From Octopus sinensis (Eukaryota): DNA of 36,525 bases. The number at the start of each line of letters is the position of its first letter. Position 1 is the stretch's first letter. The stretch covers positions 1 to 36,525 of the forward strand of contig NW_021826251.1 in the NCBI RefSeq assembly GCF_006345805.1. The letters are read 5' to 3'. Both the position numbers and the translations under genes were made by a program. Below the pieces are notes generated by a model. That model saw nothing but the letters and a program-made list of their open reading frames with translations. It was not told the DNA's origin and made no database searches. Shown piece after piece: positions 1,750-34,226 of this stretch.

Positions 1750-4434
1750 CCTCTCAACACATGACTATGATGCTCCCCCACTACTTCTGCTCATGATCAG
1801 AGATGCACATATCGTCAGCCACTAAGGGTCATGCTCAACTGGTTATGGTCAAACAACTGACAAGCAAATCTGTGGTATTGAGCAGAATATTTGCTGTAAA
1901 ACATATCTTTTATACCAAGACAAAACAATGTACATGATAACACTTCCAATCAGTTAAGATCAGAAGCCATGAGAGCCACTGCCTGGTACTGCATCAGGGT
2001 ATTCAAACCCCAAAGAATCCCTCTCAACATATGACTATGATGCTCCCCCACTACTTCTGCTCATGATCAGAGATGCACATATCGTCAGCCACTAAGGGAC
2101 ATGCTCAACTGGTTTAAGGTCAAGCAACTGACAAGCAAATCTGTGGTATTGAGCAGAATATTTGCTGTAAAACCCATCTTTTATACCAAGACAAACAATG
2201 TACATGATAACACTTCAATCAGTTAGATCAGAAGCCATGAGAGCCACTGCCTGGTACTGCATCAGGGTATTCAAACCCCAAAGAATCCCTCTCAACATAT
2301 GACTATGATGCTCCCCCACTACTTCTGCTCATGATCACAGATGCCACATATCGTCAGCCACTAGGGACATGCTCAACTGGTTTAAGGTCAAGCAACTGAC
2401 AGCAAATCTGTGGTATTGAGCAGAATATTTGCTGTAAAACCCATCTTTTATACCAAGACAAACAATGTACATGATAACACTTCAATCAGTTCAGTTAAGA
2501 TCAGAAGCCATGAGAGCCACTGCCTGGTACTGCATCAGGGCATTCAAACCCCAAAGAATCCTTCTCAACATATGGCTATGATGCTCCCCCACAACTTCTG
2601 CTCATGATCAGAGATGCACATATCGTCAGCCACTAAGGGACATGCTCACTGGTTTAAGGTCAAGCAACTGACAAGCAAATCTGTGGTATTGAGCAGAATA
2701 TTTGCTGTAAAACCCATCTTTTATACCAAGACAAAAAATGTACATGATAACACTTCCAATCAGTTAAGATCAGAAGCCATGAGAGCCACGCTGGTACTGC
2801 ATCAGGGCATTCAAACCCCAAAGAATCCTTCTCAACATATGGCTATGATGCTCCCCCACTACTTCTGCTCTGATCAGAGATGCACATATCGTCCGCCACT
2901 AAGGGACATGCTCAACTGGTTTAAGGTCAAGCAACACTGACAAGCAAATCTGTGGTATTGAGCAGAATATTTGCTGTAAACCCTCTTTTATACCAAGACA
3001 AAACAATATTACATGATAACACTTCCAATCAGTTAAGATCAGAAGCCATGAGAGCCACTGCCTGGTACTGCATCAGGGTATTCAAACCCCAAAGAATCCC
3101 TCTCAACATATGACTATGATGCTCCCCCACTACTTCTGCTCATGATCAGAGATGCACATATCGTCAGCCACCAAGGGACATGCTCAACTGGTTATGGTCA
3201 AACAACTGACAAGCAAATCTGTGGTATTGAGCAGAATATTTGCTGTAAAACATATCTTTTATACCAAGACAAAACAATGTACATGATAACACTTCCAATC
3301 AGTTAAGATCAGAAGCCATGAGAGCCACTGCCTGGTACTGCATCAGGGTATTCAAACCCCAAAGAATCCCTCTCAACATATGACTATGATGCTCCCCCAC
3401 TACTTCTGCTCATGATCAGAGATGCACATATCGTCAGCCACTAAGGGACATGCTCAACTGGTTTAAGGTCAAGCAACTGACAAGCAAATCTGTGGTATTG
3501 AGCAGAATATTTGCTGTAAAACCCATCTTTTATACCAAGACAAAACAATGTACATGATAACACTTCCAATCAGTTAAGATCAGAAGCCATGAGAGCCACT
3601 GCCTGGTACTGCATCAGGGTATTCAAACCCCAAAGAATCCCTCTCAACATATGACTATGATGCTCCCCCACTACTTCTGCTCATGATCACAGATGCACAT
3701 ATCGTCAGCCACTAAGGGACATGCTCAACTGGTTTAAGGTCAAGCAACTGACAAGCAAATCTGTGGTATTGAGCAGAATATTTGCTGTAAAACCCATCTT
3801 TTATACCAAGACAAAACAATGTACATGATAACACTTCCAATCAGTTAAGATCAGAAGCCATGAGAGCCACTGCCTGGTACTGCATCAGGGCATTCAAACC
3901 CCAAAGAATCCTTCTCAACATATGGCTATGATGCTCCCCCACAACTTCTGCTCATGATCAGAGATGCACATATCGTCAGCCACTAAGGGACATGCTCAAC
4001 TGGTTTAAGGTCAAGCAACTGACAAGCAAATCTGTGGTATTGAGCAGAATATTTGCTGTAAAACCCATCTTTTATACCAAGACAAAACAATGTACATGAT
4101 AACACTTCCAATCAGTTAAGATCAGAAGCCATGAGAGCCACTGCCTGGTACTGCATCAGGGTATTCAAACCCCAAAGAATCCCTCTCAACATATGACTAT
4201 GATGCTCCCCCACTACTTCTGCTCATGATCAGAGATGCACATATCGTCAGCCACCAAGGGACATGCTCAACTGGTTTAAGGTCAAGCAACTGACAAGCAA
4301 ATCTGTGGTATTGAGCAGAATATTTGCTGTAAAACCCATCTTTTATACCAAGACAAAACAATGTACATGATAACACTTCCAATCAGTTAAGATCAGAAGC
4401 AATGAGAGCCACTGCCTGGTACTGCATCAGGGCA
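1750..4434. repeat. Tandem array, ~270-bp unit x10 (intron 7)
   Basis: Unit cctctcaacatatgactatgatgctcccccac...gcatcagggtattcaaaccccaaagaatc recurs at ~1750, 2020, 2288, 2560, 2827, 3099, 3369, 3639, 3910 and 4180 with near identity. Confidence 0.95.
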
Positions 4435-4442
4435 TCATCATT

Positions 4443-4665
4443 GAGGTTGTGAGCTGACAGAATTGTTGCTGCACCAGAAAAAATGCTCAGTGGAATTTCT
4501 CCTGACTCTTTAATTCCTGAGTTCAAATACTGCAACGGTCAGCTCTTTGCCTTTCATCCCTTTGGGGTTGATGAAATAAAGGACCCGCTAAATATATCCA
4601 AATTAATGTAATCGAGGAACCTCTTCCAAATGAAATTGCTGACCTTGTGCCAAAGTTAGAAAGAA
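4443..4665 (+). mobile_element. Old degenerate SINE-like element
   Basis: Degenerate A box (gagctgacagaattg), B-box-like gagttcaaatac, central ttgcctttcatccctttggggttgatgaaataa motif, followed by an (ATT)n tail. Confidence 0.5.
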
Positions 4666-8668: not shown

Positions 8669-10229
8669 GTGACGTTATGTTTATATTGTATGGAATTATC
8701 GTTGTTTTTATTTCCAGGAGATTTCTAAATAAGGGGAGGTAGTGAGTGATTTTTTCCGGTGTAGGGGAGATACTCGCTTAAAAAATTTTTTTTCCATTTC
8801 CTTGTTAATTTCTCTGTGTCAGTATGTTCGGATGGTTGAGTCTGGGTTTGTACTTTTCAATGAAGAATGTTTCCTTGTTCAGTCTCATTTGTGTTGATGA
8901 TCCGAAAGTACATTGGTAAAATGGGAAGATTAAAAATTGTGGCAGTAGTTGCTTTGCGCATTTCTCAATGTGCTCACTAAAAGGTATCATTCTATATTCT
9001 GGGAATGCAATCTGTTGTCGATGCAGTGTGCATCTGCGCCTGAGTGATAGTCCCGTGGAACCTCAGTAGTTTTGGTTCATGGGGTAGTAGTGATTTGTGT
9101 GTGGTGTATTTCTTATCCTAGTGTCGTATTGTGCTGTATGGTGGTTGGGTCTGGTATTATGATGTTGTTGGTTTGTTCTGTTTTTGGTGTAATTTCTTTC
9201 ATAGACGCGTCCTCTTTCAGCTAGTTCCCTGTTAGGTCTAGCGTGGTTTGTAGAGGTTGGTTGTGGGTGATTTCTGTTTTTAGTGTATGGAGGATAGTTG
9301 GGGGTTGTTCGTGGGTTGTTAGGTTTTTCTTTTTTATTTATTGTAATTTTCTTAAGGAAGGGATTATTTGTACCCAATTCATTTTTGAAGGTTTCACTAT
9401 ATTTTTGGAAGAAGTCCATGTTTTTCTCCCAGCGTAGGAGAGAATTTCTCTCTTCTCTCTCACAGGAATCCTTCCAGTGATCCAATGTATTATCGAGGGG
9501 TTGTCCCTCGGTATATTTTTTTGATTGTGCATCTCCTCGTCTATGCTTTTAAGTTTTTCTTCATTTGTGGAGGCCCTGAGTCTTAGAAGCTCTATTTCTG
9601 ATTTAAAATTGAACAGAGCTGACTTTTCTCTAATAGATCTCTGTCCGTCAGGCTCGTTAGGAATTAATTTTATCTGGAATTTGCGTGGGAGGATAATTGG
9701 TGTTGAGTTTATCCATCCCTCGTAGATATCTGCTTTGTTGGAATTTTTTATCATGTTCCAGAAGGTGAGTTTTCTGTTGTGCAGGTTTGTATTCCAAACG
9801 TTTCCTATTTTTCTTTTTGTTGGGTTGGTTTGGGTGCGTATGGTATCCTGCTGTGTATCCTGCAGATGCACACTGCATCGACAACAGATTGCATTCCCAG
9901 AATATAGAATGATACCTTTTAGTGAGCACATTGAGAAATGCGCAAAGCAACTACTGCCACAATTTTTAATCTTCCCATTTTACCAATGTGCTTTCGGATC
10001 ATCAACACAAATGAGACTGAACAAGGAAACATTCTTCATTGAAAAGTACAAACCCAGACTCAACCATCCGAACATACTGACACAGAGAAATTAACAAGGA
10101 AATGGAAAAAAAATTTTTTAAGCGAGTATCTCCCCTACACCGGAAAAAATCACTCACTACCTCCCTTATTTAGAAATCTCCTGGAAATAAAAACAACGAT
10201 AATTCCATACAATATAAACATAACGTCAC

Positions 10230-12816: not shown

Positions 12817-15000
12817 GTTAAAAAACAATTAAGAGGCAAGCGAAAATATTTTGAAAAGCAAAAGATTGGCTAAAAGTTATGAGTTGAGGGAAAGAAATAG
12901 AAGACGGAACTGAAAAGGTAATGCCTAGTTTAAAAGGGGAGAAAAGGGTTTGTTAATACCGGATGCAAGGCAATACAATAGAATATACGTGGTCGAAAAT
13001 GAAGGGTGCTTTCATTTCATTATTAGAAGAATGCGTAGAGTGTGTAAACAGAAAGAATGAGACTTGATCACGAGAGACACTAATAGCCTTAGAAGTAAGA
13101 AAGAAGCTAAAGGAAAAATTACAATTGGCAAGCTTAGAAGTAGAGATAAATAAATGTCAGGGAAATTACAACCAACAAAATATCATCATCATTTAGCATC
13201 TACTTTCCATGCTAGCATGGGTTGGACGGTTCAACTGGGGTCTGGGAAGCCAGAAGGCTGCACCAGGCCCAGTTTGATCTGGCAATGTTTCTATGGCTGA
13301 ATGCCCTTACTAATGCCAACCGCTCCGTGAGTGTAGTGGATGCTTTTTATGTGCCACCGGCACAGGTGCCAGACGAGGCTGACAAACATCCACAATCGGG
13401 TGGTGCTTTTTACGTGCCACCGGCAAGGGGGCCAGATGAGGCTGGCAACGGCCACAAACGGATGGTGCTTTTTATGTGCCACTTGCACAGGTGCCAGACG
13501 AGGCTGGCAAACGGCCACAAATGGATGGTGCTTTTTATGTGCCACCTGCATAGGTGCCAGACGAGGCTGGCAAACATCCACAATCGGATGGTGCTTTTTA
13601 CATGCTACCTGCATAGGTGCCAGATGAGGCTGGCAAACGGCCACAATCGGATGGTGCTTTTTACATGCCACCAGCACGAGGCCAGTCAGGGTGGCGCTGG
13701 CAATGGCCACGTTCGGCAGGAGGCCAGTCGGGGCGGTTAAAAAACAATTCAGAGACGAGCGAAAATATTTTGAAAAGCAAAAGATTGGCTAAAAGTTATG
13801 AGTTGAGGGAAAGAAATAGAAGATGGAACTGAAAAGGTAATGCCTAGTTTAAAAGGGGAGAAAAGGGTTTGTTAATACCAGATGTAAGGCAATACAATAG
13901 AATATACGTGGTCGAAAATGAAGGGTGCTTTCATTTCATTATTAGAAGAATGCGTAGAGTGTGTAAACAGAAAGAATGAGACTTGATCACGAGAGACACT
14001 AATAGCCTTAGAAGTAAGAAAGAAGCTAAAGGAAAAATTACAATTGGCAAGCTTAGAAGTAGAGATAAATAAATGTCAGGGAAATTACAACCAACAAAAT
14101 ATCATCATCATTTAGCATCTACTTTCCATGCTAGCATGGGTTGGACGGTTCAACTGGGGTCTGGGAAGCCAGAAGGCTGCACCAGGCCCAGTCTGATCTG
14201 GCAATGTTTCTACGGCTGGATGCCCTTCCTAATGCCAACCGCTCCGTGAGTGTAGTTGGGAGCTTTTTACGTGCCACCTGCACAGGTGCCAGATGAGGTT
14301 GGCAACGTCCACAATCGGGTGGTGCTTTTTACGTGCCACCGGCAAGGGGGCCAGGTGAGGCTGGCAACGGCCACGAATGGATGGGGCTTTTTACATGCCA
14401 CCGGCAAGGGGGCCAGATGAGGCTGGCAACGGCCACAATCGGGTGGTGCTTTTCACGTGCCACCGGCAAGGGGGCCAGGCGAGGCTGGCAACGGCCACGA
14501 ACGGATGGTGCTTTTTACATGCTACCTGCATAGGTGCCAGATGAGGCTGGCAAACGGCCACAAATGGATGGTGCTTTTTACATGCCACCTGCATAGGTGC
14601 CAGACGAGGCTGGCAAACAGCCACAATCGGATGGTGCTTTTTACATGCCACCGACACGGGGGCCAGGCGATGCTGGCAAACGGCCACGATCGGATGGTGC
14701 TTTTTATGTGCCACCTGCATAGGTGCCAGACGAGGCTGGCAAACAGCCACAATCGGAGGTGCTTTTTACATGCCACCTGCATAGGTGCCAGATGAGGCTG
14801 GCAACGGCCACGAATGAATGGTGCTTTTTATGTGCCTCCAGCACGAGGCCAGTCAGGGTGGTGCTGGCAATGGCCACGTTCGGCAGGAGGCCAGTCGGGG
14901 CGGTTAAAAAACAATTCAGAGATGAGCGAAAATATTTTGAAAAGCAAAAGATTGGCTAAAAGTTATGAGTTGAGGGAAAGAAATAGAAGATGGAACTGAA
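12817..15000. repeat. Local tandem duplication (~0.92 and ~1.17 kb units) with embedded ~60-bp minisatellite
   Basis: gttaaaaaacaatt...gcgaaaatattttgaaaagcaaaagattggc recurs at ~12817, 13736 and 14903; the units differ in the number of 60-bp repeats. Confidence 0.9.
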
Positions 15001-19896: not shown

Positions 19897-21270
19897 ATCA
19901 TCATCATCATCATCATCATCATCATTTAACGTCCGCTTTCCATGCTAGCATGGGTTGGACGGTTCAACTGGTGTCTGGGGAGCCCGAAGGCTGCACCAGG
20001 CCAGTCAGATCTGGCAGTGTTTCTACAGCTGGATGCCCTTCCTAACGCCAACCACTCCGAGAGTGTAGTGGGTGATTTTATGTGCCACCGACACAGGTGC
20101 CAGACGAGGCTGGCGAACGGCCACGCTCGGATGGTGTTTTTATGTGCCACCGACACAGGTGCCAGACGAGGCTGGCAGATGACCACGCTCGGATGTGTGT
20201 TTTTATGTGCACCGACACAGGTGCCAGACGAGGCTGGCGAACGGCCAGCTCGGATGTGTTTTTATGTGCCACCGACACAGGTGCCAGACAAGGCTGGCAG
20301 ATGACCACGCTTCGGATGGTGTTTTTTTTTTATTGTGCCACCGACACAGGTGCCAGATGAGCTGGCGAACGGCCACGATCGGATGGTGTTTTTATGTGCC
20401 ACCGACACAGGTGCCAGACAGGCTGGCAGATGACCACGCTCGGATGGTGTTTTTATGTGCCACAGACACAGTGCCAGACGAGGCTGGCGAACAGCACGCT
20501 CGGATGGTGTTTTTATGTGCCACCGACACAGGTGCCAGACAAGGCTAGCAGACGACACGCTCGGATGGTGTTTTTATGTGCCACCGACACAGGTGCCAGA
20601 CGAGGCTGGCGAAAGCCACGCTGGATGGTGTTTTTATGTGCCACCGACACAGGTGCCAGACAAGGTTAGCAGACGACCACGCTCGGATGGTGTTTTTATG
20701 TGCCACAGACACAGGTGCCAGACGAGGCTGGCGAACGGCCACGCTCGGATGGTATTTTTATGTGCCACCAACACAGGTGCCAGACAAGGCTAGCAGACGA
20801 CCACGCTCGGATGGTGTTTTTTTTATGTGCCACCGACACAGGAGCCAGATTTGGCTGGCGATCGGCCACGATTGGGTGGTGATTGTTACGTGCCCACAGC
20901 ATGGAGGCCAGTCGGTGCGGTACTGGCTACACCCACGTTCGGATGGTATTCTTGTGTGTCACCGGCACTGGTACCACAAAGATACAAATTCCATTGATGT
21001 TCATCTATTTTGATTTTGTTTGATTTTCACTTGCCTCAACAGGTCTTCACAAGTGTCACAAGAAGGAAGGTATGCACAGGTGGACTGACTACGTCCTAGG
21101 TAGGGGCCACGGGTTATGGCCTGACTAGTCTTGCCGGGTCTTCTCACGCACAGCATACTTCCATAGGTCTCGGTCTCTAGTCATTTCCTTGGTGAGACCT
21201 AAAGTTCGTAGGTCGTGCTTCACCACTTCGTCCCAGGTTTTCCTGGGTCTACCTCTTCCACAGGTTCCCT
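19897..21270 (-). mobile_element. RTE-clade LINE 3' end with long repeat-containing 3'UTR
   Basis: Minus-strand EGTCGRGRPRKTWDEVVKHDLRTLGLTKEMTRDRDLWKYAVREKTRQD* (~21270-21125), 3'UTR with ~60-bp repeats, (GAT)n tail. Confidence 0.85.
20075..20880. repeat. ~61-bp minisatellite x~13 inside the LINE 3'UTR
   Basis: tatgtgccaccgacacaggtgccagacgaggctggcgaacggccacgctcggatggtgttt; alternating gcgaacgg / gcagatga variants. Confidence 0.95.
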
Positions 21271-27204: not shown

Positions 27205-28270
27205 AATGAATACACCTTACTTCCCTGGGCATGGATACATTGAAACTCCGACGTCTGGCAGCTGACTTGGCAGACACCCAAAAAATTATTAACCCTCTTA
27301 CAAACAATAACTCTGAGCACCTTTTCAAACTCCACGCATCTAACACCTGTGGACATGTTTACAAAGACAGAAAACAGCACAGCTCCCACGACTTTTGGAA
27401 ACATTTTAGAATACCCTCCATCAGGCATTTGCCATATTCTGAACGCCTTGCTTCTCTGGGCATGGATACATTGAAACTCCGACGTCTGGCAGCTGACTTG
27501 GCAGACACCCATAAAATTATTAACCATCTTACAAACAATAACTCTGAGCACCTTTTCAAACTCCACCTGTCTAACACCCATGGACATGTTTACAAAGTCA
27601 CAAAACAGCACAGCTCCCATGACTTTCGGAAACATTTTTTCACGCTAATAGTTGCTGAAGCATGGAACAAACTGCCAGCATCAGTTGTTGGTTGTCGGAG
27701 CACTGCATCCTTCAAAACTTCCATGCTTCCTGAGATTCGCCAACACTACACCTGATCTTTCTCCCCTCCATACACACGCAAGCATGTATCTGACTCATAT
27801 ACTGTTCACCTCCCAGACATTTGTACATTACTGCATATGCTTTATACGCACTTTTGACAAGTTGTGTTGCACCTGAGCACTGTATACAACAATTTTATTA
27901 TTATTATTATTTAAAAACTCCAACTGTCTAACACCCGTGGACATGTTTACAAAGTCAGAAAACAGCACAGCTCCAATGACTTTCGGAAACATTTTTTCAC
28001 GCTAAGAGTTGCTGAAGCATGGAACAAACTGCCAGCATCAGTTGTTAGTTGTCGGAGCACTGCATCCTTCAAAACTTCCATGCTTCCTGAGATTCGCCAA
28101 CACTACACCTGATCTTTCTCCCCTCCATACACACAAGCAAGCATGTATCTGACTCCTACACTGTTCACCTCCCAGACATTTGTACATTACTGCATAGGCT
28201 TTATACGCACTGTTTGACAAGTTGTGGTGCACCTAAGCACTGTATACAATAATTACATTATTATTATTAT
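27205..28270 (+). mobile_element. Second CR1/L2-type LINE 3' ends, internally duplicated
   Basis: PSIRHLPYSERLASLGMDTLKLRRLAADL...FRKHFFTLIVAEAWNKLPASVV; (TAT)n tails at ~27895 and ~28255. Confidence 0.85.
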
Positions 28271-28271
28271 T

Positions 28272-28612
28272 TCAACACAACGTGACAGTCCCGTAAGGGA
28301 ATCACACCACCGCTGTTTAGCCCTAGGAAGCATCGACGCTTCCTGCCGGCTTTGACACATTTCCCGTGTCCTTATATTTGCGAAGGCTAGACAGGCATCT
28401 CAGCTAGCAGGGCTCACTATCCCGGACTGATGACGGGTTAAGACCCAGAAACATGCATGTCTTCAGGTGTGATTCCTAGCTGGTGGGGGTGCTTGCCTCC
28501 CCTTTGCAGATATGCCACAGGAAATGTGTCAAAGCCGACTTGAAGCGTCGATGCTTCCTAGGGCTAAACAACGGTGGTGTAATTCCCATACGGGACTGTC
28601 ACGTTATGTTGA
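28272..28612 (+). mobile_element. ~340-nt foldback (rod-like) element carrying a hammerhead ribozyme
   Basis: 28272-28369 pairs with 28515-28612 with about ten mismatches; pairing continues inward through G-U-containing helices to the hammerhead. Confidence 0.75.
28421..28467 (+). ncRNA. Type I hammerhead ribozyme motif
   Basis: cccgga CUGAUGA cgggu-uaag-accca GAAA caugcaug UC uucagg; canonical core boxes, palindromic ACAUGCAUGU stem III, predicted cleavage after GUC at 28461; C-A mismatch at the base of stem II. Confidence 0.8.
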
Positions 28613-28811
28613 CAGTATGCAACCACTCTATCTCTCCACCACCGCTCATGTCTCTCTGAGACATTTAGAAATTCAATATTTCCTGAGCACTGTATACAAT
28701 AATTTCATTATTATTATAATAATTCTTTCTAAGATATTTCCAGACGTAAGTAAATATGCTATTGATAGACAGGGTGAGACAAAAGTAACACAAAAAGACA
28801 TTTGACATTTT

Positions 28812-31549: not shown

Positions 31550-31900
31550 CAGAAGACACCTCCCCAAGGGGCCACGCAGTGCGAATGAAGCCAGAACAAT
31601 GTGGTTGGGAAGCATGTTACTACACAGCCACACCTATGCCTACATGTAAAGATACGCCCGTGCCTATGTATTTTATCAATATTAATGAAATATAAATGTC
31701 CATTTTTTCCCATTCACTGCACAGCAATAAAATGTCTGACCAAGAAGCAATTTATTGACATTTATTTATCAGGTTACGATACTTATTGATTGTAAAAAGT
31801 AGTGTGTTTAAAGATAGGATATTATCCAGAAGTTGACTATCAAATGTTATCATCTTAGTGTTTTTACTATTTGCATTGTATACTGCAATCTGGTTATTTC

Positions 31901-34226
31901 ATCATCATCATCATCATTTAACGTCCGCATTCCATGCTAGCATGAGTTGGACGATTTGACTGAGGTCTGGCAAACCAGACTCCAATCTGATCTGGCAGAT
32001 GTCAGGGAAATTGCAACCAACAAAATATCATCATTGTTTAGCGTCCTCATTCCATGCTAGCATGGGTTGGACGATTTGACTGAGGTTTTGGCAAACCAGA
32101 CTCCAATCTGATCTGGCAGATGTCAGGGAAATTGCAACCAACAAAATATCATCATTGTTTAGCGTCCGCTTTCCATGCTGGCATGGGTTGGACGATTTGA
32201 CTGAGGTCTGGCAAACCAGACTCCAATCTGATCTGGCAGATGTCAGGGAAATTGCAACCAACAAAATATCATCATTGTTTAGCGTCCGCTTTCCATGCTG
32301 GCATGGGTTGGACGATTTGACTGAGGTTTTGGCAAACCAGACTCCAATCTGATCTGGCAGATGTCAGGGAAATTGCAACCAAAAAAATATCATCATTGTT
32401 TAGCGTCCTCATTCCATGCTAGCATGGGTTGGACGATTTGACTGAGGTTTTGGCAAACCAGACTCCAATCTGATCTGGCAGATGTCAGGGAAATTGCAAC
32501 CAACAAAATATCATCATTGTTAGCGTCCGCTTTCCATGCGGCATGGGTTGGACGATTTGACTGAGGTCTGGCAACCAGACTCCAATCTGATCTGGCAGAT
32601 GTCAGGGAAATTGCAACCAACAAAATATCATCATTGTTTAGCGTCCGCTTTCCATGCTGGCATGGGTTGGACGATTTGACTGAGGTTTTGGCAAACCAGA
32701 CTCCAATCTGATCTGGCAGATGTCAGGGAAATTGCAACCAACAAAATATCATCATTGTTTAGCGTCCGCTTTCCATGCTGGCATGGGTTGACGATTTGAC
32801 TGAGGTCTGGCAAACCAGACTCCAATCGATCTGGCAGATGTCAGGAAATTGCAACCAACAAAATATCATCATTGTTTAGCGTCCGCTTTCCATGCTGGCA
32901 TGGGTTGGACGATTTGACTGAGGTTTTGGCAAACCAGACTCCAATCTGATCTGGCAGATGTCAGGGAAATTGCAACCAACAAAATATCATCATTGTTAGC
33001 GTCCGCTTTCCATGCGGCATGGGTTGGACGATTTGACTGAGGTCTGGCAACCAGACTCCAATCTGATCTGGCAGATGTCAGGGAAATTGCAACCAACAAA
33101 ATATCATCATTGTTTAGCGTCCGCTTTCCATGCTGGCATGGGTTGGACGATTTGACTGAGGTTTTGGCAAACCAGACTCCAATCTGATCTGGCAGATGTC
33201 AGGGAAATTGCAACCAACAAAATATCATCATTGTTTAGCGTCCGCTTTCCATGCTGGCATGGGTTGACGATTTGACTGAGGTCTGGCAAACCAGACTCCA
33301 ATCGATCTGGCAGATGTCAGGAAATTGCAACCAACAAAATATCATCATTGTTTAGCGTCCGCTTTCCATGCTGGCATGGGTTGGACGATTTGACTGAGGT
33401 TTTGGCAAACCAGACTCCAATCTGATCTGGCAGATGTCAGGGAAATTGCAACCAACAAAATATCATCATTGTTTAGCGTCCGCTTTCCATGCTGGCATGG
33501 GTTGGACGATTTGACTGAGGTCTGGCAAACCAGACTCCAATCTGATCTGGCAGATGTCAGGGAAATTGCAACCAACAAAATATCATCATTGTTTAGCGTC
33601 CGCTTTCCATGCTAGCATGGGTTGGACGATTTGACTGAGGTCTGGCAAACCAGACTCCAATCTGATCTGGCAGATGTCAGGGAAATTGCAACCAACAAAA
33701 TATCATCATTGTTTAGCGTCCGCTTTCCATGCTGGCATGGGTTGGACGGTTCAACTGGGGTCTGGGAAGCCAGAAGGCTGCGCCAGTCCCAGTCTGATCT
33801 GGCAATGCTTCTACAGCTGGATGCTCTTCCTAACGCAAGCTATTCCGAGAGTATAGCGGGTGCTTTTACGTGCCACCAGCACGAGGGCCAGTTTGGTGGT
33901 ACTGGAAACGGCCACGCCCAAATGGTGCTTTTTACGTGCCACCTGCACAGGAGCCAGTCAAGCGGCACTGGTGACGACCTCACTCAAATGTTTCACATGT
34001 CACCAGTACAAGTGCTAGTAAGGCGACGCGATAACGATCACGCTTGAATGGTGTGCTTAACATGCCACCGGCATGAAGGCCAGCTTGTTGCTCTGGCAAC
34101 GATCTCACTCGTATGGTACTCTTAGCGGTCCTCTAGCAACGGATTTCACTTGCCTCAACTGGTCTTCGCAAGCAGAGTTTAGCGTCCAATGAAGAAAAGG
34201 CACGCACAAGTGGACTGGTTACACCC
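31901..34226 (-). mobile_element. RTE-type LINE 3'UTR insertion with 20-bp TSD
   Basis: tactgcaatctggttatttc at 31881-31900 and 34227-34246; (CAT)n tail at 31901; body homologous to 19897-21090. Confidence 0.85.
31905..33748. repeat. ~120-bp minisatellite x~15
   Basis: gcgtccgctttccatgctggcatgggttggacgatttgactgagg...atgtcagggaaattgcaaccaacaaaatatcatcattgttta repeated with ~120-bp period. Confidence 0.95.

Follow-up and report, generated by a model that had tools for sequence, protein, structure and literature searches.

The question raised by this locus is whether a foldback of some 340 nt, with a hammerhead motif at its apex, is itself a mobile, viroid-like RNA, or whether its rod shape was made when a more familiar kind of element inserted into the genome. 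The foldback occupies positions 28272-28612 of the window, by which is meant the whole 36,525-nt stretch of Octopus sinensis DNA (contig NW_021826251.1) that was analysed. A sequence-only reading had proposed a ribozyme-bearing mobile RNA with an unusual, single-copy rod architecture. The element is very probably a non-autonomous Penelope-like element (PLE)/non-LTR retrozyme that is mobilised in trans, the rod having been made at insertion by a head-to-head, 5'-truncated second copy of the unit. Since the outer stem varies from copy to copy and the insertion is probably of the head-to-head PLE type, the locus is likely to represent an element of a known kind, as opposed to an RNA of viroid-like nature. 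What stands of the original proposal is a non-autonomous hammerhead retroelement akin to PLEs and non-LTR retrozymes; the viroid-like, single-copy rod as the mobile RNA is given up.

Fold, extent and hammerhead motif

The stretch does pair from end to end, as had been recognised from its letters, with a minimum free energy of -227.6 kcal/mol (z -26.7; 0 of 100 shuffles). Folding of both strands, suggested earlier as a check, divided the structure in two: the reverse complement of the whole rod was equally stable (-230.7), while the inner 141-nt hairpin was specific to the plus strand (z -4.3, against -0.85 on the minus strand). Nine of the 54 pairs in this hairpin are G-U, and the same native hairpin is formed by a copy without inversion, L023 (z -6.7). 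That natural copy (L023:1465-1816, 352 nt) served as the ruler for unit positions u1-352. On this scale, the insertion in the window consists of a sense copy and, 5' of it, an inverted copy that ends at u276 (Table 1). Its right end had been set at 28612, which proved too short, as family sequence reaches 70 nt further, to 28682. The switch from inverted-arm to native 5' sequence falls at the same spot in L003, L004, L006, L008 and L014.

Table 1. Features of the insertion and its flanks, in window coordinates; u, position in the ~352-nt unit.
Feature	Position	Strand	Remarks
3'-terminal part of the host repeat receiving the element, with its (ATT)n tail	28232-28270	+	
Inverted, 5'-truncated second unit copy (u276 to ~u162)	28272-28386	-	Left arm of the rod
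14-nt microhomology where inverted and sense copies meet	28373-28386		Perfectly paired base of the native RNA stem
Sense copy of the ~352-nt unit (u37-346)	28375-28682	+	93% to L023
Native imperfect RNA hairpin prolonging hammerhead stem I	28375-28515	+	Found in non-inverted copies too
Type I hammerhead motif	28421-28467	+	Stem I 28421-28426/28462-28467; core 28427-28433
Hammerhead stem II, GAA and palindromic stem III	28434-28447, 28448-28450 and 28451-28460	+	
Predicted cleavage site	after C28461	+	C17
AC-rich stretch	28613-28631	+	Terminates at the family's short 3' end (~u295)
One-sided 'tail'	28632-28682	+	From the short (u~295) to the long (u~350) 3' end
Second copy of the same 39 bp (92%)	28682-28720	+	Missing from sister locus L002

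The motif has CUGAUGA at 28427, GAAA, a palindromic stem III and C17 at 28461, and all parts of a type I core (C3-A9, G12-A14, A15.1-U16.1, H17) are present together with three covarying helices. A loose hammerhead pattern matched three times in the window, only the match at 28427 having stems, and a pattern scan of both strands found no hammerhead motif on the minus strand of 28272-28612. The description of the motif as canonical holds for the core letters and the palindrome. It does not hold for the stems: stem II begins here with a C-A mismatch, its base being unpaired in 35 of 46 aligned copies, the canonical 10.1-11.1 pair next to the core is absent, and a further C-A mismatch, at 28423 in stem I, stands in place of the U-A found in 38 of the 46 copies. 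Nor did Rfam, to which the earlier reading had looked for confirmation, give a hammerhead match with either the whole window or the 141-nt core. Forcing the ribozyme fold on a monomer cost 5.8 kcal/mol for the window copy and 3.4 for L023, and stem III can pair with itself as a 10-bp duplex (-13.3). Given the cost of the fold, the unpaired base of stem II and the mismatch in stem I, monomer activity is predicted to be poor.

Across the family, both the core and covariation, on which the proposal had been staked, were found. CYGANGA was matched in 76 of 85 anchored rows, two of the 76 coming from an inverted arm. In an alignment of 46 rows (the window copy and 45 of the 85, near-duplicates and damaged or inverted cores having been left out), 90% of cells were paired, and 70 cells had changed on both sides, whereas shuffles gave 25 such cells and slid controls no more than 19. 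In reading these figures, it should be borne in mind that the 3' half of the motif served as anchor for the rows and that relatedness inflates covariation. Four of the six pairs of stem I and three of the four of stem II covaried. A younger subfamily of the repeat (L182-L211, 97-99% alike) keeps the core, with U4C, on different stems, and has the same tandem and inverted layouts.

The repeat family and the origin of the outer stem

With the rod as query, the 2.72-Gb, repeat-rich Octopus sinensis assembly returned 2403 first-look candidates; 40 were scored and 94 matches were listed. These figures, which are not copy numbers, dispose of a single-copy rod. At many loci, the sequence past 28612 loops back into the region upstream of the hammerhead, and the partial tandems share a fixed u352-to-u1 junction. 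Two hammerheads, spaced 352-354 nt, occur in each of L052 and L026, compared with one in the window copy; no long arrays of the short unit were seen, dimers being the most. What lies in the window is thus a single insertion belonging to a dispersed repeat, non-coding and ~352 nt long, the unit normally being without an outer stem. Contigs from four runs (RNA type guessed) covered parts of the family; they held no joints, and none spanned 28272-28612, a pattern that is neutral as to expression, cleavage and circles.

Inversion is frequent in the family whichever part is used for selection. Thirty loci chosen by the tail alone comprised 14 with a head-to-head inverted copy, 6 with a tandem only and 10 single copies. 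Selection by the hammerhead alone gave inversions in 8 of 25 independent insertions (30 loci before the window copy and a duplicate were removed and two repeatedly listed loci were merged). Of these 22 inversions, neither selection being based on the rod, only 2 have a junction in the stem register. In a set of 19 independent insertions chosen because they resemble the rod, 10 junctions are in register; these lie at several crossover points and in different sub-variants, from which it follows that rods arise anew. Free 3' ends lie within u290-309 or u340-352 in 88 of 113 cases, giving two preferred ends ~55 nt apart. The tail is confined to one arm in 16 of the 19 rods, the inverted arm in 8 and the sense arm in 8, and this even division is more easily reconciled with two priming events than with simple fold-back copying. 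No fixed-length TSD was found in 76 insertions; the flanks of 20 of them matched, for the most part as (TA)n or (ATT)n, and clean duplications of 11-12 bp were seen at L018 and L096.

G-U wobbles had been taken as a sign of selection on plus-strand RNA. As the inner 141 nt are strand-specific and the outer arms unbiased, this argument is valid for the native inner stem only. In the outer arms (u180-290) of 29 inverted pairs, 68 G-U were counted against 66 A-C on the hammerhead strand (p 0.93), and the transition mismatches in the outer 98-bp stem of the window copy amount to 0 G-U and 5 A-C on the plus strand. Outer arms diverge by 7.1% within a locus, compared with 9.4% across loci, and non-majority letters are common to both arms 3.3 times more often than across loci (0.019 vs 0.006 per base). 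Copying from one source would produce both the likeness of the arms and their common rare letters, and it can mimic covariation; the arms of the window copy are 8.2% apart and have no rare variants in common. What forms the outer stem is a second unit copy in inverted orientation; its junction varies among insertions, and it has no RNA-strand bias. Selection as plus-strand RNA seems to have acted on the inner stem and on the stems of the ribozyme.

The rival that survives best keeps the same family and has the inversion arise by fold-back: at the hairpin, either the first cDNA or an antisense template would prime itself and then copy itself. Self-priming is what PMC3846280, in the sections drawn on here, proposes for palindromic junctions, and the 10 rod-like insertions joined in register, together with the rare variants common to both arms, are as such a process would leave them. 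However, in 8 of the 19 rods the inverted arm goes ~55 nt beyond the 3' end of the sense copy that should have been its template, and 20 of the 22 unselected inversions are out of register; this route is considered unlikely.

Far less probable, and largely refuted, is the reading in which the 341-nt rod is itself a mobile viroid-like RNA, its pairing selected over the full length. The end-to-end fold is very stable, ~20 full-length rod-like matches were present among the 30 loci fetched with the rod as query, and the rare variants common to the arms look compensatory. Against this, junctions and arm lengths differ among rod copies, in-register joins are the exception among inversions from the searches not based on the rod (2 of 22), the outer arms lack a G-U strand bias, and the minus strand folds equally without a hammerhead motif in the stretch. 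In addition, the unit cannot be released by one linear hammerhead, and the sole sister with the same junction, L002, has 1.38 kb including flank in common with the window and so belongs to a larger duplication. Neither ribozymes in both polarities nor a fixed, full-length unit selected as RNA was found. A MITE or foldback DNA transposon with ~100-bp TIRs and a chance hammerhead-like motif, suggested by the long inverted arms and the lack of an ORF in the short form, is the least credible of all, as the ends are not fixed (two 3' ends, a one-sided tail), many copies have no inversion, none of the 76 insertions revealed the fixed-length TSD that, with perfect TIRs, would mark a classic DNA transposon, and the family includes head-to-tail partial tandems and covarying ribozyme stems.

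Insertion, partners and an ORF-bearing form

For the preferred retrozyme reading, insertion may be pictured as two priming events, a model read from genomic patterns only. The RT/GIY-YIG protein of a PLE would nick both strands of an (ATT)n target in the tail of a host repeat, and two cDNAs would be primed, one from the u~350 end and the other from the u~295 end. Their 3' ends would anneal by microhomology through the self-complementary stem under the hammerhead, which would place the ribozyme at the apex of the rod. Tandem transcripts would be cut to ~352-nt units, which may circularise; the hammerhead, presumably poor at cleaving as a monomer, would work in dimeric form, joined by the palindromic stem III, or be assisted by a protein. 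Among the papers listed in a literature search, none described twin priming in PLEs, and the way in which PLE inversions form is called undefined in the cited papers. The 8:8 division of the tail and the crossovers scattered along the ribozyme stem bear on this origin.

At the insertion site, the absence of a TSD had been claimed, yet the full insertion is flanked by a 39-bp direct repeat (92%) that is probably not a simple TSD. The plain reading is doubted because L002 is without the repeat and no other of the 76 insertions has a long unique duplication. L002 matches window positions 27303-28682 at 96%, host fragments included, and the outer flanks differ, so that one of the two loci is a later copy of the other. 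L002 ends at the full u352, where the window instead has a further 39 bp of host-repeat end; this suggests RNA-mediated copying with a template switch. The host repeat resembles the end of a CR1-type LINE, and its reading frame matched no Pfam family. Together, window 27303-28720 and L002:532-1911 show a 1.38-kb composite of LINE-like fragments and the inverted insertion. Elsewhere in the window are a perfect 304-bp inverted repeat (8734-9037 and 9862-10165, with 824 nt between the arms) and tandem arrays of ~120-nt, ~271-nt and ~62-nt units (31848-33886, 1752-4575, 13317-14858 and 20048-20995), the 62- and 120-nt arrays both coming after a common SINE-like head.

Several features of PLEs are present in the family: partial tandem, pLTR-like copies with 5' truncation, an inverted and 5'-truncated copy beside the 5' end (14 of 30 and 8 of 25 loci), an optional tail at one end, and a hammerhead inside the terminal repeat. 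The non-coding 352-nt unit with a type I hammerhead also lies within the 150-450 bp of retrozymes. The genome carries elements with RT and GIY-YIG, intact ORFs and hammerhead-like motifs of their own. None of 63 RT/GIY-YIG loci (20, 14 and 29, among thousands of candidates) shares DNA with the unit, and searches for a partner by GIY-YIG family, by tail and by junction gave no unit-bearing element. When 207 family loci were searched by tblastn with two PLE proteins, only L073, L170 and L173 matched; among L073/L242 and the 29 nearest RT relatives, none has the unit. At L242:1300-2960, a family copy lies head to head with a decayed PLE RT-EN fragment whose 3' end is unlike the unit and for which no matching terminal repeat was found. 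A PDB search with a PLE ORF gave no match. One two-ORF RT and GIY-YIG element (L082:1-7508), with a 479-aa ORF1 of no known family and a 781-aa ORF2, is arranged as a 5.9-kb tandem, carries a hammerhead-like motif of its own (at 1001 and 6936) and has many intact copies.

A longer form of the repeat was also recovered. At several loci, the sequence runs from u77 into ~1.7 kb and back to the hammerhead at ~u61-80, and the insert holds a single ORF, intact in L169 (459 aa from Met), with no RT found. The ORF has a weak zinc-knuckle match in Pfam (E 0.003, below cut-off), and its look-alikes in the Atlas were CCHC and ZCCHC3-like clusters (0.91-0.92, recognition being below the bar of the tool). 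It is unrelated to ORF1 of the L082 element. A query with a long-form fragment gave 9572 candidates, and at 17 of the best 30 loci unit sequence lay no more than 1.5 kb away. The RT-less form of ~2.1 kb with its ~450-aa zinc-knuckle ORF was seen at L169:2096-4225 and at L125-L128, L132, L133 and L164-L181; it also occurs in ~1.7-kb tandem arrays, some of them, as in L164, without the hammerhead repeat or other unit sequence.

The zinc-knuckle ORF of the long form is under purifying selection: when 11 ORFs, picked because they are open, were compared pair by pair along their first 240 aligned codons, the 50 printed pairs (of 55) had dN/dS values of 0.04-0.19. A tentative extension of these observations is a protein-coding retrozyme system, in which an RT-less element of ~2.1 kb, present in very many copies, carries a ~450-aa, L1/Tx1-ORF1-like (ZCCHC3-like) gene under purifying selection between hammerhead-bearing, Penelope-type ends. 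Its protein would chaperone the RNA or ribozyme, a PLE would give RT and endonuclease in trans, and the 352-nt unit would be its minimal satellite. The long form would then be a parasite of the PLE type, non-autonomous yet with a protein under selection, and a possible explanation of the very large zinc-knuckle gene expansion in this genome. Among the papers listed in literature searches, none described such an ORF-bearing form or a cephalopod hammerhead.

Comparison with known systems

Viroids of the Avsunviroidae type and viroid-like circles are of similar size, with a rod-like fold and a hammerhead. The element in the window differs from them in being a genomic repeat with a type I motif in one polarity, and its rod probably came from an inversion of DNA copies.

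Metazoan retrozymes, as defined in PMC7229834, are derived from pLTRs in bioRxiv 10.64898/2026.07.22.740005. The repeat resembles these non-LTR retrozymes, as far as the sections drawn on describe them, in its non-coding unit of 150-450 bp, its type I hammerhead and its dispersed monomers and dimers, and it has the weak stem II base of axolotl HHR_Amex2. Arrays beyond dimers were not seen here, and the longer, ORF-bearing form is a further difference; the word 'inverted' occurs 0 times in PMC7229834.

The hammerhead itself may be compared with those of PLEs, which in the relevant part of PMC4209133 have a palindromic helix III and low monomer activity. Like these and the Poseidon PAc of PMC11167929, it has the palindromic helix III, an unpaired base after A9, a predicted poor monomer activity, and an insertion end in an AC-rich stretch downstream of the ribozyme. 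It departs from what the two sources describe in a stem II of no more than 3-4 bp, an additional A ahead of G12, and a stem I prolonged into an imperfect hairpin of ~55 bp. The Poseidon hammerhead, according to the same portion of PMC11167929, needs protein and is dispensable for insertion in vitro, where both strands are cut and extended, ATT is preferred, and two RT starts bound the tail.

A close correspondence is to the pseudo-LTR insertions of PLEs. The extracts used from PMC8557442 and PMC3846280 tell of pLTRs with cargo between them, of partial tandem copies, of a 5' copy in inverted orientation and of a tail, 30-40 bp long, on one side only, and PMC3846280 reports a 15-bp overlap of inverted and direct pLTR. 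The octopus family likewise has 5'-truncated partial tandems, a head-to-head copy with a short overlap, a one-sided tail, microsatellite targets, a hammerhead in the repeat and unrelated cargo between repeats. It differs from those accounts in its tail of ~55 nt, in the position of the window copy's junction in the stem under the hammerhead, and in that no RT/EN element with the 352-nt repeat was found among the 63 loci. Such palindromes are frequent in PLE insertions, so the rod itself is ordinary, and they will recur as false viroid-like or miRNA-like matches.
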